This document shows, piece after piece, positions 7,145 through 50,641 of a stretch of 64,000 nt of DNA. How positions within the stretch are numbered: position 1 is the stretch's first letter; every line of letters starts with the position of its first letter. Both the position numbers and the translations under genes were made by a program. The notes under the pieces were generated by a model. It was not told where the DNA came from and made no database searches. It was given only the letters and a program-made list of their open reading frames with translations. The stretch lies in the sequence record MN850585.1; one strand, written 5' to 3'. The DNA comes from Escherichia phage skuden.

Positions 7145-15142
<7,998 letters not shown>

Positions 15143-15143
<1 letters not shown>

Positions 15144-15382
15144 TACATTTTTCCTGCTCTTCTAAGTTCGTTGTAAGCAATTTCCTCTTTATACGACCTC
15201 TGAATCTCAAGAAATTGTCTCAATGATAATAAATCAGAGAATGTCATAGCAAAGAGTTGGTCAAGTGTTTCTTTACACCCTTCCATACCATAAATAGCAA
15301 GCACAAATTTCATCTCGTCTGCTTCTTCATAGGTTGCCTCTACAGCAGCATCAGTTAGTGGTGTCTGTAGAGTGTTACCCAT
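15143..15382 (-). CDS. tail assembly chaperone (putative)
   Basis: 79-aa ORF between tube and tape measure. Confidence 0.4.
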
Positions 15383-15384
15383 GT

Positions 15385-15783
15385 TTACTGAGAAGTTAGG
15401 CTTTTGAAAATGCTTGCTTCGAAAAAACTTCCGAAGTTTGCCTCCAGCGCAAATGCTAAGTAATCAATAAACTCACCGTAGTTTGCTTGGAAGTACGTAT
15501 CAATATTAAGTGGGAAGTCATCAACAGTTGCCCCTTGAAATAACAGGGTAGCCATTTCTTCAAGGTTAATTTCTTCAATTCTGTCAAAACAAGCTTCAAC
15601 AAGTTCTTTAAATGGAACCATTGGAGCTTCTTTCTTACCCTTGTCAGTCAGACTTGACAGCATCTGTGCAAAGGTTGGAACAACAATTTTACCCAACTTC
15701 ATAGACATCTTAATACCATCTCTTGCCCCAAGCAGAACGATATTTACTTTCTTACCATTAATTACTCTAGATTCTGTTTTCAT
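15385..15783 (-). CDS. tail assembly chaperone (putative)
   Basis: 132-aa ORF between tube and tape measure. Confidence 0.4.
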   Translation of the reverse strand: MKTESRVINGKKVNIVLLGARDGIKMSMKLGKIVVPTFAQMLSSLTDKGKKEAPMVPFKELVEACFDRIEEINLEEMATLLFQGATVDDFPLNIDTYFQANYGEFIDYLAFALEANFGSFFEASIFKSLTSQ

Positions 15784-15812
15784 TGTGATTCCTTAATACT
15801 TTTAAAAGAAAC

Positions 15813-15847
15813 AAAAAAGGGGAAGACCTTTTAAAGTCTCCCCCTTA
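15813..15847 (-). terminator. rho-independent terminator after tail tube gene
   Basis: minus-strand RNA GGGGAGAC-loop-GGTCTTCCCC followed by TTTTTTG. Confidence 0.55.
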
Positions 15848-15856
15848 TAGGATTTA

Positions 15857-16303
15857 TTAAACACTTGACGCTGGAATTGTAGAAGTGTAGTCTAGCTTCT
15901 CACAACCAAAAATCCAAGTTTTAGAGTTCTGGTCACGACCAAGTTCAATCTGCGGTAATTCCTGCAACCAAGCATTAATACCAGTTGCCAGAACAGAGCC
16001 TGATGGGTCGTAGATTACGAAGTTAGAAGAGATATCTTCTTCAAGTTCCATATTGTCTTGTTTAGCTTGAATTGCAGAAAGCATCTGGTTAGAGAGAGAA
16101 GTCTGCATTAACTCAATCTCAATAGTACCTGTCTTGTCTGCATTTCTTGTCAGAGCAACTTGACCACCTGCACCAACAACTGGTGTCACAAGTGGTGATG
16201 TTCTCTGTAGACGCAAGAATGAATCTGGGGCAAAGCCTTCAATGGCAATACCATTCCAGCTACATACAACGTCTTTAGGGGAATATTGCTGATACATAGC
16301 CAT
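15857..16303 (-). CDS. tail tube protein
   Basis: 148 aa, immediately downstream of sheath gene; biased codon usage. Confidence 0.55.
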   Translation of the reverse strand: MAMYQQYSPKDVVCSWNGIAIEGFAPDSFLRLQRTSPLVTPVVGAGGQVALTRNADKTGTIEIELMQTSLSNQMLSAIQAKQDNMELEEDISSNFVIYDPSGSVLATGINAWLQELPQIELGRDQNSKTWIFGCEKLDYTSTIPASSV

Positions 16304-16318
16304 TCCAATTTACCTCTA

Positions 16319-17671
16319 TTATTCGTAAGCCACTGTACCTTTCAAGTCAACATCCAAGATAGCCCCTGCTAAGATACCTGCGAAGGTAACGTCTTTCAGG
16401 ATACGTGCTTTCTTGTCTGCTAAAGCAACTTGAGAGGCTTTAGGAACATTAACTGTGTAAGATGACAGGAAGTTTCTGTTGACTGCTCTTTGCAGAGAGG
16501 TTTCAATGACTTGACGAATACGAGTAATACCAGTATCATCATAAGTAATCTTACCACCCTTCTGGTTAATTAGCAAGTCTCTCAGAGAAGTTTTCAGGTC
16601 TGATTCTAACCAGTCAACACCACGGATGATATCAATCCATTCCCCACCAGAAGTAATCCCTCTACGAACCACTGGAACACCACCATCAAGGTCAATAAAG
16701 TTACAGTGACGTGCATCTAAAGCAGACTTCTGAATACTTGTCAGAGGTCTCTGATTAGATGGTTGTAGAGAAGCTGCTACACCAGTTAGCTGAGCATTAC
16801 CCCAAGCAATCGAACCTGCGTCATATGGAGCACCATAAGCAATGTATGCCATCTCTGGATAATCTTCTGCTGCTGTGTGATGCCACAAGCAAACTGTACG
16901 AGTGTACATATTCTTAGCAAGCTGTGCTGGAACATCATTTGCACTGGCTAATTCTGTGCCTTGCAGTGCTGCTACATCTGAGTTAGCCGTAAAGAAGATT
17001 TTCTTGCGAGCCTGAATCTCAGAAGCCATTGCTAAGACAAACTGTTGAGTTCTGTCTTCTGCTGCAATGAAATACCAGTCAGTAGAATAAGCTTCGATAG
17101 CTGCCAGAGCAGTTGATGCTGTATCGGCAGTTGTACTTGCAATGTATACAGTCTGTGCTGTGGTTGTTACTTTCACAAAGTCATTATCACCAGCTTTGGT
17201 AATAATCATTGTGGCAGAGCCATTGCTACCAGTTACATTCACAGAAACCTTATCTTTGATTGTTGGGTCAGCTTCAATCTGTGTTTTAAACTGTTGCAAC
17301 ACTACCTCAGCAGTGTCTGAGTCTTGTGCTGTGTACTGGTATGGTTGAGAAATTCCACCGCCAGCAGCTACAGTAATTGAGTAGTCTGTACTTTCGGTAA
17401 CGGCATCAGGAATTGATACAGTGTACTGCATAGCACGTCTACCAATATAAAGCTGAGTTACTTTAGGAGTCTGACTCCAAAGTTGTTTAGCAGCCTTATA
17501 TGCAGCAGAGTTTTCATCGAAATCTTCAGCAACTTCAGTTAAGGAAGTGTAACCACGGACTCTTTCTTCAAAGTTATCTGTTGAAGCTAAGAATAGTGGC
17601 AAACCAAAACCTTCTCTTGTAGTTCCTGCGGTGTTCAATGTAATATCTACATTAACAATTGGATTCCACAT
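16319..17671 (-). CDS. contractile tail sheath protein
   Basis: 450 aa, upstream of tube gene, size typical of myovirus sheath. Confidence 0.55.
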   Translation of the reverse strand: MWNPIVNVDITLNTAGTTREGFGLPLFLASTDNFEERVRGYTSLTEVAEDFDENSAAYKAAKQLWSQTPKVTQLYIGRRAMQYTVSIPDAVTESTDYSITVAAGGGISQPYQYTAQDSDTAEVVLQQFKTQIEADPTIKDKVSVNVTGSNGSATMIITKAGDNDFVKVTTTAQTVYIASTTADTASTALAAIEAYSTDWYFIAAEDRTQQFVLAMASEIQARKKIFFTANSDVAALQGTELASANDVPAQLAKNMYTRTVCLWHHTAAEDYPEMAYIAYGAPYDAGSIAWGNAQLTGVAASLQPSNQRPLTSIQKSALDARHCNFIDLDGGVPVVRRGITSGGEWIDIIRGVDWLESDLKTSLRDLLINQKGGKITYDDTGITRIRQVIETSLQRAVNRNFLSSYTVNVPKASQVALADKKARILKDVTFAGILAGAILDVDLKGTVAYE

Positions 17672-18271
17672 TTATTTTACCCCTTTGGAGTCTACATCTA
17701 GATGGATAGTATATTCTGGTGGCTCTTGTCCTTCTTCATAAACTAACTCACCATCAACAATGACACGCTCAATAATACTTCCACGTTCATCTTTCAGGAC
17801 TGAGTTTTTTACAAGAGTTACAACAAGAGGTGCAGAATTTTCGAAATCTGTATTGAGATAAGTGTAATCATTTGGGATTGCTCCAGTGTCCAGTACTGTA
17901 GCTCCTGTTTCTTCAAGAATTAAATCTCTGACTGAACTCATCTCTAATCGTTGTTTAAGCTCAAGCATAATACTGTGAGCACCTTTACCATTCACCGTAA
18001 TTAGTACAGGAATCTGAAAAGCAATTCTGTAGCAAACTACATCATCCTCAACAAACTTATCAAGAACCCAACCATAAGGTGTTGCAGCATCTTGACAATA
18101 TACGGTAATAAATGGCTGGTCAGGTTTTAAACCTTTGTCATTTGAGTTATCAGAAGGGTAAGCTCTAATTACGTTTGGTCTATTATTTTTATCACGAGCT
18201 AGTCTGTGACCAATAACATCCACTAAGGTTCTAACTAGACCTTTTTCAAGTTCTGCTGTTTCTAACTGCAT
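17672..18271 (-). CDS. neck / tail completion protein (putative)
   Basis: 199-aa ORF between head and tail modules. Confidence 0.4.
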   Translation of the reverse strand: MQLETAELEKGLVRTLVDVIGHRLARDKNNRPNVIRAYPSDNSNDKGLKPDQPFITVYCQDAATPYGWVLDKFVEDDVVCYRIAFQIPVLITVNGKGAHSIMLELKQRLEMSSVRDLILEETGATVLDTGAIPNDYTYLNTDFENSAPLVVTLVKNSVLKDERGSIIERVIVDGELVYEEGQEPPEYTIHLDVDSKGVK

Positions 18272-18647
18272 TCATTTTATCCCTTCTAATAATGATATAT
18301 TCATAATGGGACGTATGGGCTAATTGCTGTGACCAATCCATAGTCATAAATACTTCATACTCATGACCATCAATCATAACAATGTCAGACTCATTCCACT
18401 CTACATCATCTGAAGTTCTAAGCTTATATGTGGTATACAGGATTCTTGTATCAGTAAGTCTAATACCTTCCGGTAAAGCAATCTGTGTACCGTTCTTTAC
18501 AGAACCTTTGATATATGGCTGGATATTACCTTTACAGTTAACCTCTACAATATCTTGTGAAGCTACCCAATCACCATCATCGTTATAATAACCGTCTTCA
18601 GAGACTTTACGCTTTACTACAAAGCTGTGTCTGTTTAAGAGTCTCAT
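18246..18647 (-). CDS. neck / head-tail connector protein (putative)
   Basis: 133-aa ORF, overlaps neighbours. Confidence 0.4.
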   Translation of the reverse strand: MRLLNRHSFVVKRKVSEDGYYNDDGDWVASQDIVEVNCKGNIQPYIKGSVKNGTQIALPEGIRLTDTRILYTTYKLRTSDDVEWNESDIVMIDGHEYEVFMTMDWSQQLAHTSHYEYIIIRRDKMNAVRNSRT

Positions 18648-19126
18648 TTCTTAATACCCTTCTTAGTAGAAATTTTATAAGCAAGGTTATCCCTTAAGTC
18701 ACCTGTCTCAACAAGAGGTGCGTTAAAGCCTTTTTTCTTGACTGTGGAAGGTGCGTTAGGAGGGAGGATAGCAGAATTACCAAAACCTCTTTTAATTGCC
18801 TTTTGAGCATTCTTTGCAAATGCTTCTAAGGTATTTGAAGGGTCTGTGTTGAGACTGCTAAGTTGCTTATATAGATTCTTCTTAGTCTGCTCTAACAAGG
18901 TCTGTTTGTTTAGCATCATAGTGATTTCAAACAACCTACGATATACTTTACCAGAAGCTGAAGGAACCCCAATAACTTCTTGTAAATACATTAAAGCAGG
19001 ATAAGAAAAACCAGAGCTATGTTGACCTTGTTCTTGAAAATACCCAACTTGAGCATTAGCCGTTTGCAAGTTCTTCATAGCCCCGACTAATTTTGCTCTA
19101 GCGGGGTGAATAACCCTTTTAACCAT
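18644..19126 (-). CDS. virion morphogenesis / head completion protein (putative)
   Basis: 160-aa ORF in head-tail joining region. Confidence 0.4.
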   Translation of the reverse strand: MVKRVIHPARAKLVGAMKNLQTANAQVGYFQEQGQHSSGFSYPALMYLQEVIGVPSASGKVYRRLFEITMMLNKQTLLEQTKKNLYKQLSSLNTDPSNTLEAFAKNAQKAIKRGFGNSAILPPNAPSTVKKKGFNAPLVETGDLRDNLAYKISTKKGIKK

Positions 19127-19575
19127 TATTCATCTCGCTCGATAATAAATACGCCATTAACACGGTTGCAGTAATCTCTGCCTTCGTATCTGGCAGCATC
19201 ACCATATTCTGTGTATTTCTTGACAGAGCAAGGATTCTGACGACGCATGTCAATATCACACTGATTAATACCACCTGCATAGGGTAGTCCTGAAACAGAG
19301 CTTTTAACAAGGTCGTCATAAACAGCTTTCAGAGATTTGAATCTGGAAGAGTTACGTAAATAAACACCACCAACCTTCTCATCTCCCATCTTGGCTACTT
19401 GAAAGAGTAAATATTTAAGAGCTTTGATGGCTGCTTTCTTTTCATCCTTTCCAGATTCTAGATAGAACCACTCTAGCACAGACTGTTCAATAAGAATTTC
19501 ATCATTATTGGTGTCTGTGCAGAGGATTCTTACTCTATCAAGAGGGTTATTGGCTGGGTCGCCTGTATAACACAT
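19126..19575 (-). CDS. head-tail connector protein (putative)
   Basis: 149-aa ORF directly downstream of capsid gene. Confidence 0.4.
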   Translation of the reverse strand: MCYTGDPANNPLDRVRILCTDTNNDEILIEQSVLEWFYLESGKDEKKAAIKALKYLLFQVAKMGDEKVGGVYLRNSSRFKSLKAVYDDLVKSSVSGLPYAGGINQCDIDMRRQNPCSVKKYTEYGDAARYEGRDYCNRVNGVFIIERDE

Positions 19576-19596
19576 TCATAACCCTCCTTAAGAATA

Positions 19597-21125: not shown

Positions 21126-22472
21126 TTATTTGATAAGAGATTTTAGAGCATTCTGGAGAGCCAGTTTGCGTTGTTCAGCGGTGTCTTCGGAAGCATTCTT
21201 AGCTGGTTCTTTTTCTTCTTCAACCAAATCAGCTTCGCCGTCATTACCCATTTCTTCCATAGCATTAGAATGTTCAAGAACAGCACCAGCAGTTTCTTTC
21301 AGCTTGGTAATTTCTGATTCTTTTTCTTCCATTGCAGAAGCATGGGACGCGATAGTTTCATTAAGTTTCTGGTTAGCACCTTCCATAGCATTCATAAACA
21401 GAACACTCAGAGGGTTGTCAAGACCAGCACCTAAAATAGTCGTTGCAGCTTCTTTTGCATCAAATCCAAAAGCTTCAGCAGAAGCAGAAATCTTATTAGT
21501 CAAATCTGACAAAGCAGCTTCCTGTTCTTTAGCTTTCATTTGAGCAACCTGAAGACGCAAAGCTTCTAGTTCTTGCTTTTCTTGTTCAGTCATTTCTTCA
21601 CCTGAATTGTTAACGTTTAAACTTACAGGAGCCTCTTCAGAACCTTGTAAGTAATTTAAGAAATCATCTTGAGACATGATTGAGTTAATTAAACCAAGTT
21701 CAAGAGCTTCCTGAGCAGAATAAACATTCGCCTCAGTATTCTTTACAGCTTCTTCAGAGAGTTTACGAGATTCAGCTACAAAACCTGTAAAGGTTGCGTA
21801 GGTATCATTAATTCTCTTTTGAAGTCTTTCTTTGCTTTCTTCTGAGAGTGCTTGGAATGGTGAACCCATACCTTTAAACTCACCAGCTTTGATGACGTTA
21901 ATTGTTACGCCATTCTTTTCAAATGCTTTAGTTAATTCCTGATGAACCATAATTACACCAATAGAACCAACATCTGCATCTGGTGATGCAATAATTTCTT
22001 CAGCAGAAGATGCAAGAGCGTATGCAGCGGAACAAGCGAACTCATCTACATAAGCAATAATTTTCTTTTGGCCTCTTGAAGCCATAATGTGACGTGCTAA
22101 TTCAAAGCAACCTGAAGCTTCACCACCACCAGAATCGATATGCAGAACAATAGTCTTGATTGACTCATCTGCTAAAGCTTCGTCAAAGCCTCTGCGCAAA
22201 CCTTCATAAGAGCTTAATCCACCTGTACACATTGCATCAATGAATGTCATACGATGGGTTAAACCACCCATAATAGGGATAATAGCAATGTCATCTTTTA
22301 CTTTTAAAAGACTTCTTGCTTCACCTTTGGGTTTATCAAAGTTTACTGCTGCTTGGACATCACCCAGCAATCTGTTATTCACATAAGTTGCTGCTGAGTG
22401 AGCTAATGATTCAGTGGCTAGTAAAGGTTGGTTGAATAATCTATCAGCAAGTCTGAAGATATTCGAACTCAT
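21126..22472 (-). CDS. prohead protease (S49/SppA family) with C-terminal scaffold-like region
   Basis: 448 aa; S49-like core (IVLHIDSGGGEASG...SAAYALAS...GSIGV), then Glu/Ala/Lys-rich coiled-coil tail. Confidence 0.7.
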   Translation of the reverse strand: MSSNIFRLADRLFNQPLLATESLAHSAATYVNNRLLGDVQAAVNFDKPKGEARSLLKVKDDIAIIPIMGGLTHRMTFIDAMCTGGLSSYEGLRRGFDEALADESIKTIVLHIDSGGGEASGCFELARHIMASRGQKKIIAYVDEFACSAAYALASSAEEIIASPDADVGSIGVIMVHQELTKAFEKNGVTINVIKAGEFKGMGSPFQALSEESKERLQKRINDTYATFTGFVAESRKLSEEAVKNTEANVYSAQEALELGLINSIMSQDDFLNYLQGSEEAPVSLNVNNSGEEMTEQEKQELEALRLQVAQMKAKEQEAALSDLTNKISASAEAFGFDAKEAATTILGAGLDNPLSVLFMNAMEGANQKLNETIASHASAMEEKESEITKLKETAGAVLEHSNAMEEMGNDGEADLVEEEKEPAKNASEDTAEQRKLALQNALKSLIK

Positions 22473-26844: not shown

Positions 26845-26920
26845 TGGAGAATCCGAAGGGACTCGAACCCTTATAAACCTGTTTTGCAGACAGGCACATA
26901 GCCATTTCTGTCACGGATTC
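26845..26920 (-). tRNA. tRNA-Cys (anticodon GCA)
   Basis: hand-folded cloverleaf; T-loop TTCGAGT; 7-bp acceptor; loop CTGCAAA; CCA encoded. Confidence 0.65.
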
Positions 26921-26924
26921 AAAT

Positions 26925-27017
26925 TGGAGGAAGATACCAGACTTGAACTGGTACACCGATTTCTCAGCTACTGGCAGTTTAGCAAACTGCTCCCTTACCT
27001 TTTAGGGTTAATCTTCC
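26925..27017 (-). tRNA. tRNA-Ser (anticodon GCT), class II
   Basis: 93 nt; acceptor GGAAGAT/ATCTTCC; T-loop TTCAAGT; anticodon loop TTGCTAA; long variable arm. Confidence 0.6.
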
Positions 27018-27018
27018 A

Positions 27019-27756
27019 TTATTTCTGTAATGCGCTCTTCATTTCTGGTGTTGCAATAGTGTCGATTACACCAGTTTTACAAGCATCATCAAACCAGTCT
27101 GGTAAGATACCTGCTAAGAACCCATTGATATTCGTTTTAAGGTACTCTGCAATAAGGGCAGCTTCTTCTTCAATCATCTGCACAACTTCATCTGCATAAG
27201 CTGTAATCTTTGAGATACCTTCATTAATCTTACTAACAGCCTGATTAGCTAAATCAGAAACAGTATCAAGACCCTTATCAATAGCGTCTTGTAAGTCACT
27301 TAACACACTGTTAACACTGTCTAGTGTGCTGTTAATCATGTCAATAGCTTTTTGACCATACTCTGTAGCAACACCCATAATACCACTGAATGGTGTACAA
27401 CCAACTTGTTCTCCTGCTGCACCCATAACATTGGAATATCCCTTTGCTACCTGCATACGTGATGAAAACTCATCAATAGACTTTTGACCATAGTCTGTTA
27501 GGGTCTTAGTGGTTGCTGTAGTGCTTGTCAGGCTTGTTGTAAAGCTGTTTAGAAGGACTGTTGTAAGTCCAGCAGCAACAAGCTTCTCCTTCATTGTAGG
27601 GTCTGTTACAGAGCTAATAGAGCTTACAAGTGATGTAGAGGCAGCTACGGTTCCACCGAGAACTGCTGCACCAGTAATAAGTGGGTTAGAAAACCCTTTA
27701 CCGGTTTTTAAGAGATTAAAAATCTCCTTACCTTGTTCTGTCATCTCTTTCATTAA
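27019..27756 (-). CDS. hypothetical protein (Ser/Thr-rich) inside tRNA cluster
   Basis: track ORF 27019..27969 has an N-terminal extension overlapping tRNAs; likely start at MKEMTEQ (27756). Confidence 0.4.
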   Translation of the reverse strand, partial: LMKEMTEQGKEIFNLLKTGKGFSNPLITGAAVLGGTVAASTSLVSSISSVTDPTMKEKLVAAGLTTVLLNSFTTSLTSTTATTKTLTDYGQKSIDEFSSRMQVAKGYSNVMGAAGEQVGCTPFSGIMGVATEYGQKAIDMINSTLDSVNSVLSDLQDAIDKGLDTVSDLANQAVSKINEGISKITAYADEVVQMIEEEAALIAEYLKTNINGFLAGILPDWFDDACKTGVIDTIATPEMKSALQK

Positions 27757-27769
27757 GCACCTTTGAAAT

Positions 27770-27845
27770 TGGTAGTCCAGTGGGATTTGAACCCTCTTCT
27801 CATGTTTTTCAGACACGCGCTTTACCATATAAGCTACTTGGACTA
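27770..27845 (-). tRNA. tRNA-Phe (anticodon GAA)
   Basis: perfect 7-bp acceptor TAGTCCA/TGGACTA; T-loop TTCAAAT; anticodon loop CTGAAAA. Confidence 0.6.
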
Positions 27846-27850
27846 TAAAT

Positions 27851-27926
27851 TGGGGTGACCTACGGGATTTGAACCCGTATAGACCATGTTCACAGCATGG
27901 GTCATTACCATTTATGATAAGGCCAC
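27851..27926 (-). tRNA. tRNA-His (anticodon GTG)
   Basis: T-arm ACGGG-TTCAAAT-CCCGT; anticodon stem CCATG/CATGG with loop CTGTGAA. Confidence 0.65.
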
Positions 27927-27957
27927 ATTTAAGGACTCTCGTAAGAACCCTTAGAAG

Positions 27958-41162: not shown

Positions 41163-41173
41163 AATATCTTAAG

Positions 41174-41198
41174 AGCCTCCTTAATTGGGGGCTTTTTA
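41174..41198 (+). terminator. rho-independent terminator ending the plus-strand gene block
   Basis: AGCCTCC-TTAATT-GGGGGCT (7 bp incl. one G-U) followed by TTTTTAATTTTT. Confidence 0.65.
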
Positions 41199-41269
41199 AT
41201 TTTTATAAAATTTTATCGGTTATCCCAACCTCTGGGTCACCATCATATGTGAACAAAATATCTATCCTT

Positions 41270-42370
41270 CTTAACAATCTTCTTAATCTTACTCTCTATA
41301 TAGTTATATAGTACTATATAGTATCTTAGCATCTATCTAGTGGTCTTAATAGCCCCTCTGTATAACCCTTCTAACTAGCCCTCTAACAAGCCTTCTAAAC
41401 ATTCTTCTAACAAGCCTTCTTAACAACCTATACAATCACCTTAACCATCTCTCTATACCCTCTTAGAAGCTCCTATACACCTCTTAATCTCTAGGTTAGC
41501 TATGATACCCTCTATAGGTGTTCACTAGGTACTACTAAGCCTCTATATAGACTGTTTTAACAAACTTAACAGGAATATCTTTACAGACCTTATCTCACAA
41601 GGTCTAACACGGTACTAACAAGGTATCTTATAAGCCTGTTTATGCCTGTATTTTTAAAAGACTGTCTAGGTAATTATTCAGAATTTTAAAATTTTTATAA
41701 AATAGGACTATCAAGTCATTTTTTAGGGTCTTTGAAGGAACTCAAAAATATCTGATTAGGATGTATATCTGCTTGGTAGCCCTTAACAGCTCCTTAACAC
41801 CCCCTTTGCAAAATTTTAAAATATCCTTAACAATCTCTTAACAGCTTTCACATCTTCTTAACAACTCTTCAAAGGCCTTAACAGTTTCTTAACAGAACTA
41901 ACAAGGTTGTAACAGTTTTCTAACAAGTGCTGAATAGTCTTTACAGATGCTTAACAGATGGCTAACAAGAGCTAACAAGTTAATTTTAAAGAGTTATTTT
42001 GTTAAGATAATTAACAAGTTCCTAACAAGTATTTAATCTTTTTAACAAGCTATTAACATGGTCACAGTGGTTGGTTACAAACACAACTTCTCTTTTCTTA
42101 TCATTCCCTTTCCTTTCTTAGTGACCTTTTAAATAGCCCTTTTAAAAGCTTTCTATAGCTCCTTGTAAGCCCTTTTTAGTACCTCCCTAGTAATTACACC
42201 CCAACTATACAGACACCTATTTATAAGGCTTTACAGGAGCTTTAAAGGTTATGTCAAAGACTCTTACAAAGCTTTTACGTGGTTTTAACAGAGATTTAAC
42301 AAGGGGCTAACAAGTTGCTAACAAGTGCCTTAAAAGCATAACTATGTAGGGATTGTTAAGAATTTGTTAA
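41270..42370. repeat. dense array of short direct repeats (C)TTAACA(A/G) / CTAACAAG in ORF-free DNA
   Basis: more than 35 copies at irregular 8-25 bp spacing by eye; no ORF of 60 aa or more on either strand across 41163..42914. Confidence 0.7.
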
Positions 42371-42379
42371 GAAAATGTT

Positions 42380-42900
42380 AAGGGGGCTAGCATTTACGTA
42401 ACTTTATAGCCTCTTTTACGTAACTTTTAAGCTACTTCAAAGTAACTTTATAGCCCCTATAACATACTTTTTAGTGACTATCAAGGGGGTTGTTTAGTTA
42501 TTCACAAGAATACTAATGAGATGATAAAGCTTACACCCTTATAAGATTCTTTTAAGGCTCTGGGAAGCTTTATAAAGGGCTTTTAAGGGTGAGGTAATGC
42601 AATCCCTTAAGTTAGGTTGATAAGGCTGTTATAGGGCGTTATAGAGCGTTTAAGGGGTTGCCCTTCCCTTTCGGGTTATGGGCTTTTATTTAAGTTGATT
42701 TGATAAGAGGTTATAGAGTAGACTATAGAGTTATTGTTTTTAAGGTATGAGATAGGTTCTATCGAATCAGTGGGAAGATTCTGGAAAGGAAAGGGAAAGG
42801 GTTGTATAAGGAATTTGATAGGACGTAAAAAAGCCCCTATGAGATAGATTCTATTGAATCCATATATAAAGGGGCTGTAAAGGTATCTGGGGCTATTTAG
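42380..42900. repeat. second repeat-rich non-coding segment (TTATAG(C/A)G, AAGGG(G), GGGCTT motifs)
   Basis: clusters such as GTTATAGGGCGTTATAGAGCG and GAAAGGAAAGGGAAAGGG; ORF-free. Confidence 0.5.
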
Positions 42901-42914
42901 CCCCGTTGCGTCGA

Positions 42915-44165: not shown

Positions 44166-44311
44166 TGATATCTGATTGCAAGCAATTTTTTTAGTTTATC
44201 TTTAAAGAAATCTTTTAAGTGAATCCCTTTAAGATAAACCCCCTCGAACAAAGTTACCAATGTCAAGAGGGATTGTCAACACTTTTTTAAAAGTTTTTTG
44301 TAAGTTGTTGA

Positions 44312-45873: not shown

Positions 45874-45950
45874 TTTTGAATCTCCAGTTTAGGACTTTAT
45901 TTAGTGGGGAAGGTCATTCCCACCCCGTTGATGTGTAATTTACTCTATCT
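45874..45950 (-). repeat. intergenic cassette family A copy
   Basis: GTGGGGAAGGTCATTCCCACCCCGTTGATGTGTAATTTAC. Confidence 0.65.
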
Positions 45951-45974
45951 AAAAACCAGTGTCAACAAAAATTT

Positions 45975-49055: not shown

Positions 49056-49141
49056 TTTTGAATCTCCTAGTTTAAGGTTAGTTAGTAAAGCTCTTTATCT
49101 GGGGCTTACTCTATCGAACTATAAGCCCCTTGTAAAGTACT
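49056..49141 (-). repeat. intergenic cassette family B copy
   Basis: conserved B-type sequence. Confidence 0.65.
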
Positions 49142-49348
49142 TTATTTATCGTAGTAGTAAATTGCTGTCTGTCTTATGTACTTTCTTGTATTTCTTGTAA
49201 GGTAGCAATTAGAGTTTATAGCTGTTTCTACATAGTTGCAATAGTCAGCTTCTGATATTCTAGACCATACGTCACATACTTGCATGTAAAAACGTTTTGC
49301 CTTTGTGTTAACGTTGGTTGTAACCATCAATTCGCGACTGTACATCAT
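49142..49348 (-). CDS. small hypothetical protein (cassette-array gene 16, first in transcription order)
   Basis: 68 aa. Confidence 0.45.
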   Translation of the reverse strand: MMYSRELMVTTNVNTKAKRFYMQVCDVWSRISEADYCNYVETAINSNCYLTRNTRKYIRQTAIYYYDK

Positions 49349-49589
49349 TTTGGATTCTCCAGTTTAGGAAGTTGGCTTGCTTGCCCGTCTGATGCAAATA
49401 TTAGATAACCATACTCAAAGAGTCAATAGGAATTTTAAAAATATTTTTTGCAAAGATTGTAATGAAACGGGTGCGCGCGACTACCACAAAACAGAACTAC
49501 AATCAAGAATTATTTTTCAATCCGCTACAAATTTTTCTGTTGACTTTTATTTCCAGATGTGGTAGCCTTGTGAGAAATGGCGACATCCC

Positions 49590-49790
49590 CACCTGCACCC
49601 ACCTACCTGCACAATTCTAAAATGATTTTTCTTGCCCGACCTGAGCGGGGTCTGCACGTTTTGAAAATGAAAAAGCTCTTTGGAGATTACCTGCACAGTT
49701 TGAAAATGAATTTTCTCTTTGGAGTTCAAAATTCTCTCTACAGATTTCTCTACAGAACTCTACCTGCACAATTCTAAAATGAAAAAGCCC
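49590..49790. repeat. four degenerate direct repeats of about 25 bp containing CTGCACA(A/G)TT(C/T)(T/G)AAAATGA
   Basis: copies near 49604, 49650, 49693, 49759 in the intergenic region upstream of the cassette array. Confidence 0.6.
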
Positions 49791-49855
49791 TCCTTACCTG
49801 AAAAATTTACCAGATAAGAAAGGCTTAGTCTATTGTGAATATTCTACAGGGTTTC

Positions 49856-50641
49856 TTAGTTCTTTGCGTCTAAGAAGGTAACTTCTGGTGAAGAGAAAAT
49901 TTCCTCAACATCCTCATCAGTTCTTGCATAGATATATGTATCTGCATCACTGCCAAATGTTACTGCAATCCTGTGATTGCTCTTCGACAGGTGGGTAACT
50001 AGAGCGTTACTTAGAGACATCTTTTCAACCGGAGGGTTACTTTGATGTACCTTACCTTTTCTTCGTCTGAAGAGGGTAACTGTGTCGTCTATGAACACTA
50101 CTACACCTGCAAAGTATTCTGGTTCACAGTAATTCTTCCAACCTGAGCGTAACTTGTGGTACATCTCTCCTTCGTAGACATACAGATAAACATCTACACT
50201 CTTCATCACCTGATTAATGATAACTGTGACGGCTTGAGGGTCTAGTCCACCGATACCTGCACCAATCATAGGTAAGCCAACTTTCTTCAACTGATTAACT
50301 TCACAGTATCTGTTAAGTTGCTTCAAAGATGACTCTAAAGCACTGTATCGGGCATCTTTACCAGTCTTAAGCTGAGTGTAAAGATTGGCTATACGGCCTT
50401 GTTTTAAACGTGCTACAGAGAAATTGCCTAGCAAATTTTCACAGGGTTTGTGACCTATACCACCTGCATACAGATAAACTTCTGTATCGGTCTCATATGC
50501 TTTTGGGTAAAGTTTAGAAATCTTATCAGCGATACCTGCACCCATTAAGTTCATACAGTTGCAACCGTGACCAATAATATCAAACTTACCTTTATCAAAT
50601 GCTGAGAAGATATCCCCATTGATGATTTTTACAATACCCAT
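49856..50641 (-). CDS. macro-domain protein (ADP-ribose binding/hydrolase fold) with C-terminal domain of unknown function
   Basis: 261 aa; GDIF...DIIGHGCNCMNLMGAGIADKI and GLPMIGAGIGGLDP match macro-domain motifs. Confidence 0.6.
   Translation of the reverse strand: MGIVKIINGDIFSAFDKGKFDIIGHGCNCMNLMGAGIADKISKLYPKAYETDTEVYLYAGGIGHKPCENLLGNFSVARLKQGRIANLYTQLKTGKDARYSALESSLKQLNRYCEVNQLKKVGLPMIGAGIGGLDPQAVTVIINQVMKSVDVYLYVYEGEMYHKLRSGWKNYCEPEYFAGVVVFIDDTVTLFRRRKGKVHQSNPPVEKMSLSNALVTHLSKSNHRIAVTFGSDADTYIYARTDEDVEEIFSSPEVTFLDAKN

Follow-up and report, generated by a model that had tools for sequence, protein, structure and literature searches.

What do four short direct repeats in a non-coding gap of Escherichia phage skuden do for the phage? 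The stretch of DNA analyzed here, referred to as the window, comprises 64,000 nucleotides of sequence record MN850585.1. It belongs to a Felixounavirus: 222 phage records match it, its DNA identity to Felixounavirus genomes is 93-97%, and the top match is Escherichia phage JohannRWettstein (Bas63). The repeats are located in a 507-bp gap (49349-49855) between a gene for a macro-domain protein and a 68-aa open reading frame (ORF), the first of an array of small genes. The flanking genes are encoded on the minus strand, which is referred to below as the gene-sense strand. A first-pass annotation, made from the sequence alone, described four tandem copies of a roughly 25-bp unit between these two genes and suggested that they were clustered promoters or operator sites controlling early expression of the small-gene array. 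Our analysis leads us to consider it somewhat probable that the repeats form an array of protein-binding sites on the DNA, iteron- or operator-like in general character.

The gap holds four copies (R1 to R4), all in one orientation, of the motif W5-TCATTTT-N5-YGTGCA(GGTA) as read on the minus strand. The number, approximate length and placement of the copies were given correctly in the first-pass annotation. The two examples that it placed at 49604 and 49759 are real copies, although each position is one base off (the 23-mers start at 49603 and 49760), and the description as tandem needs qualifying. The start-to-start distances from R1 to R4 on the minus strand are 73, 39 and 45 nt, and the repeats are therefore interspersed and not strictly tandem or head-to-tail. 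Allowing up to three mismatches, the 22-mer has three matches in the window, compared with 0.00 expected from 100 shuffles. A looser core, TCATTT-N5-7-YGTGCA, occurs at exactly the four sites in the 64-kb window, and in the complete 87.6-kb genome of phage UAB_Phi87 only at the four homologous sites. The genome-wide search for the motif that the first-pass annotation had proposed thus yielded no further copy in either sequence. This uniqueness fits a single cis-acting site and not a promoter class.

The unit has the consensus G-N-W5-TCATTT(Y)-N5-YGTGCA-KRT and a footprint of approximately 25-28 bp. Its two invariant blocks, TCATTT and YGTGCA, are approximately 11.5 bp apart from centre to centre, or about one helical turn. 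The blocks are unrelated to each other, which makes the site asymmetric, and this bipartite layout matches the sites of iteron-type or two-headed monomers. The flank at positions -5 to -3 is AAA in 44 distinct copies and TTT in 44 others, with none mixed among the copies counted. An A- or T-tract that is accepted in either orientation fits a readout of DNA shape and is hard to square with an RNA motif, as the two tracts are not equivalent in RNA. Taken together, the A-tract flank, the uniqueness of the motif in the genome and the conserved copy number point to DNA sites for a sequence-specific protein. The array likewise agrees with the usual description of iterons, as it consists of at least three same-orientation direct repeats of approximately 17-25 bp that are unique in the replicon.

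The gap can be aligned in 288 phage records. The array was found in Felixounavirus, Suspvirus, Mooglevirus, Erwinia phages of the genus Kolesnikvirus and one unclassified metagenomic phage, in three to six copies with similar spacing. Distances between copies are 73/39/45 in Felixouna- and Suspvirus, 75/41/45 in Mooglevirus (e.g. Citrobacter phage Michonne) and 37/37/39 in the Erwinia Kolesnikvirus phages M7 and phiEa21-4, where the core reads TTTTTCATTTT-N5-TGTGCATAG. Si3-like phages have three copies, and the unclassified 88-kb metagenomic contig (L050) has four to five. Scanning IMG/VR for a two-copy pattern returned only contigs of 84-94 kb and of the Ounavirinae type. Aligning 22 distinct sequences with 66-96% identity to the window shows ~100% conservation of the TCATTT and GTGCA cores and of the bases flanking them; variation falls in the inner N5-6 and in most spacers. 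Eleven core positions are invariant across approximately 88 distinct copies, whereas identity in the intergenic DNA around them falls to 66-76% in the same genera. BLAST picks up nothing of the gap but the repeats in the Erwinia phages. The region as a whole is the most conserved non-coding sequence of its neighbourhood.

In all lineages examined (Michonne, M7, Si3 [L041] and L050), a macro-domain gene directly precedes the array; the macro protein of Si3 is divergent (259 aa), and that of L050 has 148 aa. The gene downstream of the array varies between lineages. More distant homologues of the macro gene (L034 and L035; 41% identity) are not accompanied by an array. The conservation of the core, together with the persistence of the repeats and the adjacent macro gene across diverged lineages, points clearly to selection acting on the repeats themselves. 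The contrary view, that the repeats are functionless relics of a duplicated terminator tail and its flank kept by descent, draws on their arrangement: R1 overlaps the T-tract of a terminator, R3 comes after a mini-hairpin plus T-tract, and the units group into two subfamilies, R1/R4 and R2/R3, that suggest a history of duplication. In addition, the R2 core of one natural isolate (L017; IMG/VR IMGVR_UViG_2706796285_000001) reads TGTGTA in place of TGTGCA, so single sites are evidently able to decay, and insertions into the array are tolerated, as described below. Neutral sequence would not, however, persist as these repeats do in the Erwinia phages and in L050, where they are recognizable and nothing else aligns, nor does it agree with a core that is invariant within such diverged surroundings. 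We therefore regard relics as very improbable.

In the metagenomic contig L050 (IMG/VR IMGVR_UViG_3300045988_063805; 88,375 bp), the relevant region is 400-1250, where the array comes after the macro gene. The contig has no close relative in GenBank; its sole match is 98 bp to tk.4 of Acinetobacter phage Acj61. Besides the array it contains four 18-nt repeats of another family (GTTAATGAGTTGTTAAAA), which lie within a very AT-rich stretch and look like variant DnaA (DnaA*) boxes.

If proteins bind the repeats, what would the array do? We tentatively propose an origin-type mechanism, which we rank first among the possibilities although its probability is modest. A DNA-binding protein with sequence specificity, encoded by the phage or supplied by the host as a conserved enterobacterial factor, would dock at the iteron-like repeats, and transcription from the adjacent promoters would pass through a G-rich tract. 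The bound protein and the transcription together would then open AT-rich DNA and so start early replication. The surroundings of the array are one reason for considering this mechanism. In gene sense, the gap contains in order the terminator, R1-R4, a G/C-skewed module, an AT-rich block with back-to-back promoters, a UP-like element, promoter P1, a Shine-Dalgarno sequence and the 68-aa ORF (Table 1).

Table 1. Coordinates of the repeats, the surrounding control elements and the flanking genes, in gene-sense order (window positions).
Feature	Position	Strand	Description and basis
Macro-domain ('putative phosphatase') gene	49856-50641	-	Pfam Macro E=1.1e-7; PHROG 335
Intrinsic terminator of macro operon	49785-49826	-	Terminator scan: 17-pair stem followed by TTTCATTTTA
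Repeat R1	49761-49782	-	TCATTTTAGAATTGTGCAGGTA, preceded by T5; core ~100% conserved in 22 distinct relatives
Repeat R2	49688-49709	-	TCATTTTCAAACTGTGCAGGTA, preceded by CTCCAAAGAG-AAAAT
Repeat R3	49649-49670	-	TCATTTTCAAAACGTGCAGACC, preceded by CTCCAAAGAG-CTTTT; degenerate 3' end
Repeat R4	49604-49625	-	TCATTTTAGAATTGTGCAGGTA, preceded by A5
Strand-skewed G/C-rich module, ~52 nt	49549-49603		GC 50-55%; ~50% column conservation
Candidate antisense promoter	49540-49568	+	TTGACT-N17-(TGG)TAGCCT; would read into the repeats
AT-rich block	49501-49548		AAAAGTCAAnAGAAAAATTTGTAGCGGATTGAAAAATAATTCTTGA; near-invariant, holds two back-to-back -35 hexamers
Candidate sense promoter P2	49478-49506	-	TTGATT-N17-(TGG)TAGTCG; sequence scan
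UP-like element of P1	49449-49433	-	AAAAAATATTTTTAAAA, near-consensus; 14/15 to UP consensus (hand alignment)
Promoter P1	49426-49398	-	TTGACT-N17-TAATAT; promoter scan, conserved in all genera
First small ORF downstream of control region, 68 aa	49142-49348	-	PHROG 5293

The AT-rich block has a column conservation of ~100% in the 22 relatives, which is above that of the flanking coding DNA. Its divergent -35 hexamers are TTGACT on the plus strand (49540-49545) and TTGATT on the minus strand (49506-49501), and an invariant AT-rich block of this kind is origin-like. The plus-strand hexamer is part of the candidate antisense promoter, in which TTGACT and the 17-bp distance to the TA are invariant in Felixouna-, Susp- and Mooglevirus; the Erwinia phages have instead a strong antisense promoter, predicted by sequence, of the form TTGACG/C-N18-TATACT. 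The Mooglevirus counterpart of P2 is TTGACT-N17-TATGTG or TATTCG. The G/C module adjoins R4 and exists in two unrelated versions of equal length. The window-type version is G-rich on the minus strand and contains a second copy of TGTGGTAG. Most relatives have a G-quadruplex-type motif, GGGGAGAGGGGGAGTAAGAGGGGGAGAGGGG, on the plus (antisense) strand, where it overlaps the -10 region of the antisense promoter; the pattern is present in L018, L026, L027-L033, L041 and L063 and absent in the window and L017. In most lineages a G-run tract directly follows the candidate antisense promoter, a combination that recalls R-loop origins.

The promoters able to drive the small-gene array, P1 and the candidate P2, lie downstream of the repeats, and it is probable that P1 drives the array. 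P1 belongs to the early-promoter class of the phage, a uniform set of strong early-type promoters that consist of a UP-like A5-N-T4A4, 3-6 bp and TTGACA-N17-TAnAnT and recur many times in the window. Further minus-strand members of this class are found, for example, at 31794-31822, 31702-31731, 33296-33325, 44251-44279 and 45937-45965. At the other end of the gap, the T-tract of the terminator (TTTTTCATTTT) doubles as the left half of R1. Three G-U pairs, read from the sequence, make the hairpin specific to the minus strand, and the minus-strand fold (z = -2.65) owes its stability to this hairpin. The records of Barry and XTG1 annotate a terminator at the equivalent place, just 3' of the macro gene.

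Three kinds of known origin provide a comparison. In T4, oriE contains a conserved cluster of 12-nt direct repeats (iterons) beside an early promoter, and oriF and oriG consist of a promoter plus an unwinding element (PMC3016281). The present array resembles oriE in being a set of direct repeats in a lytic myovirus that are syntenic in relatives and located beside an early-type promoter; neither set of repeats has a proven role, and both loci are dispensable or redundant. The oriE repeats are 12 nt long and even, whereas those described here are approximately 25-28 bp, bipartite and 37-77 bp apart, with no sequence similarity to oriE; replication has been observed at oriE, whereas the present array is known from its sequence. 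The iteron origins of plasmids and phages (P1, F, R6K and pPS10; lambda ori) share with it several same-orientation sites of approximately 19-22 bp that are unique in the replicon, an adjoining AT-rich region and GC-richer stretch, nearby promoters and often DnaA boxes. The classical iterons are regular (~22 bp) and located beside or inside a Rep gene, while the present repeats are irregular and no Rep-like gene was found. R-loop origins (T4 oriF/oriG, ColE1 and the T7 primary origin) combine promoters with a meltable AT-rich region, to which most relatives of skuden add the G-run tract. Such origins need no iterons, the G-rich tract of the window lineage is on the other strand, and the likeness is one of sequence.

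Several observations weigh against the protein-binding and origin reading. No binding protein was found, and the neighbouring genes encode no Rep-like, initiator-like or DNA-binding domain; for ten neighbouring ORFs, Pfam yielded Macro, a DUF3139 match below threshold and nothing else, and the PHROGs to which they belong have no known function. In contrast to classical plasmid iterons, the repeats are irregularly spaced, with shifts of 2-4 bp from genus to genus, and the polarity of the G-rich tract is reversed in the window's own lineage. The GC skew has no inflection at the locus and follows gene orientation; in phages, GC skew tracks transcription. In the Erwinia phages the right half of the repeat, CTATGCACA or TTATGCACG, matches the DnaA box TTWTNCACA at 8/9 positions, and DnaA-like boxes are enriched only in these phages and in L050. 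In the E. coli and Salmonella phages the right half matches at only 6/9 positions and DnaA-like boxes occur at chance frequency, as they do in the window, so DnaA cannot be the general explanation.

Insertion data from a close relative also bear on this question. Bas63 is 98.8% identical to the window here, and its 'gene 96' corresponds to 49622-49777, which covers R3, R2 and part of R1. Barcode insertions in this gene score +0.24 to +0.98 in the PhageMaP data, neutral like those in dispensable genes, and 'gene 96' is likewise neutral in two PhageMaP table sheets for defence strains. The intact array is therefore non-essential in laboratory hosts. This tolerance is compatible with a redundant origin yet lends no support to the origin idea. 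The origins of T7 and T4 are individually dispensable.

Tolerated insertions would also suit a fine-tuning role in transcription. A regulator bound to the four sites could block or modulate transcription across the boundary, acting on read-through from the macro operon or on antisense transcription from 49540, or could loop the P2/antisense promoter pair, and in this way time the expression of the small-gene array. The array is well placed for such a control or insulator element, as it lies between the terminator and three promoter-like elements and spans approximately +28 to +205 from the predicted start of the antisense candidate; it is also conserved and found at no other place in the genome. 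An essential helix-turn-helix protein of the Cro/C1 type is among the phage gene products (Pfam HTH_3, E=4e-11; Bas63 gene 35, score ~ -1.2). Proteins of this type usually bind palindromes as dimers, whereas the present sites are asymmetric direct repeats, and the motif is not tied to any regulator. The repeats are also 180-380 bp upstream of P1, too distant for direct repression. We consider a control element of this kind rather unlikely, although it is the nearest rival to the origin-type mechanism and only slightly less probable. The operator sites suggested by the first-pass annotation are compatible with our results in so far as they are protein-binding sites, while simple repression of P1 is unlikely at this distance. 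Sites for known host transcription factors (CRP, IHF, Fis, MarA/SoxS/Rob, LexA, PurR, DeoR, sigma-54, sigma-E and Mu att) were compared by eye with the repeats through their consensus sequences, and none fits all copies.

The suggestion of clustered promoters is not supported. Such a cluster would serve the host RNA polymerase or a phage-modified form of it and boost early transcription of the small genes. R1 does give a weak sigma-70-like arrangement, TTTTCA-N17-TA(G/A/T)nnn, with scores of 8.5-9.5 out of 12 in five lineages; the version in the window (TTTTCA-N17-TAGAGT, relaxed scan) borrows the terminator tail. The first-pass annotation had itself noted that no clean sigma-70 -35/-10 pair could be assigned, and we agree: none fits the repeats, R2-R4 lack a pair at 16-18 bp, and the promoter scan finds P1 alone in the gap. 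In most copies GTGCA is followed by a TA, but the distance to the nearest one varies by 2 bp from genus to genus. The left halves of the repeats are UP-like, matching 10-12/15 positions of AAAWWTWTTTTNNAAAA by hand alignment, compared with 14/15 for the UP element of P1; there is, however, no -35-like hexamer at the distance that a UP element requires. A phage-specific promoter class can be rejected as well, since the motif occurs at this locus and at no other promoter region in the window or the UAB_Phi87 genome, and the early promoters of the phage are of a different class. Felix O1 has been reported to lack an RNA polymerase of its own or known specificity factors (PMC3185647). A tandem promoter cluster is thus highly improbable.

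The repeats could alternatively act as RNA. In this case an antisense non-coding RNA of approximately 250 nt would carry four UGCAC-N6-AAAAUGA-W5 modules that bind or titrate a protein, either as an orphan antitoxin-like decoy against an abortive-infection nuclease of the host, as in the pseudo-ToxI of PhiTE, or as a sponge for an RNA-binding protein. Candidate antisense promoters aim into the array in all lineages, and that of M7 is strong (shared UP element plus TTGACG-N18-TATACT). The dispensability of the array in laboratory strains would suit an accessory anti-defence role. The folding results argue against an RNA. Rfam matched only tRNAs at gathering thresholds and nothing credible in the gap even at E up to 10. 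The plus-strand fold has a z of -0.19, i.e. no stability signal, and RNAalifold on nine diverse arrays detected covariation on neither strand, its consensus energies over 200 nt being only -12.8 kcal/mol for the sense and -6.6 kcal/mol for the antisense strand. The alternation of A5 and T5 described above, and a downstream hairpin suited to the minus strand, point the same way.

The antitoxin lead was pursued because the units of the Erwinia phages are 37-39 nt long and head-to-tail, like type III antitoxin arrays. The array shares with ToxI and phage pseudo-ToxI (PMC3475682, PMC8860590) short direct repeats (approximately 36-45 nt) that contain A-rich motifs and occupy a non-coding stretch of a lytic phage genome, as well as a possible promoter upstream and a hairpin downstream; the G-U pairs of the hairpin at the present locus suit the other strand. 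The A-rich AAAU/GAAAU stretches of the units also resemble ToxN cleavage sites (PMC8860590). The units of the window (45, 39 and 73 nt) share only a core of approximately 25 nt, unlike the equal-length head-to-tail units of antitoxins, to which the 37/37/39 arrangement of the Erwinia phages is closer. The comparison was made with four ToxI arrays (pECA1039, an E. coli plasmid, an Enterobacter plasmid and pPA21A), with CptI and TenpI not directly compared. ToxI units of Enterobacteria read AGGTGATnnGCTACCnnTAAGTGC...GAAAATC and share only GTGCAG.TAGA with the phage unit. A BLAST search of the array against 5,426 E. coli genomes and 72,556 plasmids gave chance matches only, and a pattern scan of a genome collection returned 44 unrelated repeat loci, none from Enterobacterales. 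With no sequence match, pseudoknot or covariation signal, adjacent toxin gene or host counterpart, mimicry of a type III antitoxin is not supported, and a role of the repeats as RNA is unlikely overall.

The genome-collection scan did recover other repeats, unrelated to the phage element. Two Lachnospiraceae toxIN loci (L071 and L078), each with two 37-nt ToxI-like repeats, were matched merely through the design of the pattern. Extended tandem arrays, built from 21-nt units (for example TTGCACTTCGTGCAAATGATG) that each contain a small palindrome, were present in metagenome-assembled genomes of gut Eubacteriales/Clostridia (L067, L073, L083, L087, L102, L104 and L105), with further loci in Prevotellaceae (L074, L086, L091 and L108) and Caldilineaceae (L109).

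Some phage records annotate ORFs over the region. In Bas63, bas63_0097 and bas63_0096 correspond to 49462-49620 and 49622-49777 of the window, both on the plus strand, where they span the repeats and promoters in antisense; similar ORFs are found in UAB_Phi87 and Michonne. A protein-coding role was rejected: other genera lose the frame through spacings of 41, 37 and 73-77 nt, there is no ribosome-binding site, and the predicted 'protein' would consist of the repeats themselves. ORFs of the bas63_0096/0097 type are probably annotation artefacts. With promoters, RNA families, folded RNA, antitoxin mimicry and coding all giving negative results, the main alternatives to a protein-binding array are removed.

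The array could also be related to the ends of the virion DNA. UAB_Phi87 has a terminal repeat of 608 bp and SpeI end fragments of 4322 and 2819 bp (PMC4837284). An in silico SpeI digest of its genome places the termini in the fragment 13014-19582, which has a size of 6568 bp compared with the 6533 bp expected (4322+2819-608). The repeats of UAB_Phi87, at 22156-22330, are at least 2.6 kb from this fragment and ~6.3-6.9 kb from the ends under the preferred placement, and a terminal repeat or pac site was therefore rejected. The ends of UAB_Phi87 are most plausibly located in a gene-free stretch at approximately 15.26-15.83 kb, equivalent to ~41.9-42.5 kb of the window and ~7 kb from the repeats. 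The virion DNA ends of the window, with a direct terminal repeat of ~0.6 kb, are probably located at the same ~41.9-42.5 kb, a placement that draws on 85% identity to UAB_Phi87. The window has a 1.75-kb stretch of low GC at 41163-42914 that contains no ORF of at least 50 aa, and plus- and minus-strand gene blocks converge there.

A distance of ~7 kb, or ~8% of the genome, from the predicted end is close to the 7.9% of the first-step transfer of T5, and raises the idea of a DnaA-titrating or DNA-entry boundary element that might pause entry, or hold the DNA anchored, until the small early genes are expressed. In T5, the injection stop signal (iss) consists of conserved, untranslated repeats that contain DnaA boxes, TTATGCACA among them (bioRxiv 10.1101/866236). 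Both regions consist of untranslated repeats that are more conserved than nearby genes and lie ~8% from a genome end, and some lineages here have DnaA-box-like elements, such as the 8/9 matches of the Erwinia phages. In T5, however, the repeats are inverted, the DnaA boxes are paired 3 bp apart and the region is inside a 10-kb terminal repeat; the present locus has direct repeats only, poor DnaA boxes in the E. coli phages and a position outside the ~0.6-kb terminal repeat. Moreover, the position of the terminus is taken from another phage, and insertions into the array are neutral. Felix O1-type myoviruses are not known to inject their DNA in two steps. An entry element is accordingly the least credible of the readings considered here.

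The adjacency of the macro-domain gene and the array persists in lineages without a shared downstream gene or other DNA similarity. This raises the prospect, in our judgement quite unlikely, that the two form one functional module, with the array serving as a nucleic-acid decoy, a boundary or a T5-like entry-pause device. By analogy with the silencing of BstA by the DNA element aba, the array may in such a module be a DNA or RNA element that neutralizes a defence system of the host or titrates DnaA or another host factor.

The wider locus is otherwise that of a Felix O1-type phage. The window contains 25 tRNA genes, with a minus-strand cluster at 26845-31675 that includes two tRNA-Met genes and several isoacceptor pairs; the cluster is typical for these phages. 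Homologues of the 68-aa ORF are annotated in Barry, Michonne and Bas63. Between two small genes, at 49086-49144, is a 23-nt inverted repeat (TAAAGCTCTTTATCTGGGGCTTA / TAAGCCCCTTGTAAAGTACTTTA) that resembles the 57-bp repeated stem-loop cassettes reported among the small genes of Felix O1. It may be a terminator-plus-promoter cassette that is reused along the small-gene array.

Literature searches on Felix O1 transcript maps, on origins and on these repeats returned nothing relevant and no description of the array. The Felix O1 genome paper describes the temporal regulation of transcription as unknown, and its list of direct repeats omits the array (PMC3185647). Phages of the Felix O1 type are classical tools for typing and biocontrol. 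The unique iteron-like sites, the invariant promoter block and the G-run tract together make the array a precise candidate for an origin or master control region of these phages. For phage engineering, the region marks a place to avoid for cargo insertion. If the macro gene and the array do form a module, a phage group that is classical and widely used would possess a non-coding device for counter-defence or DNA entry.

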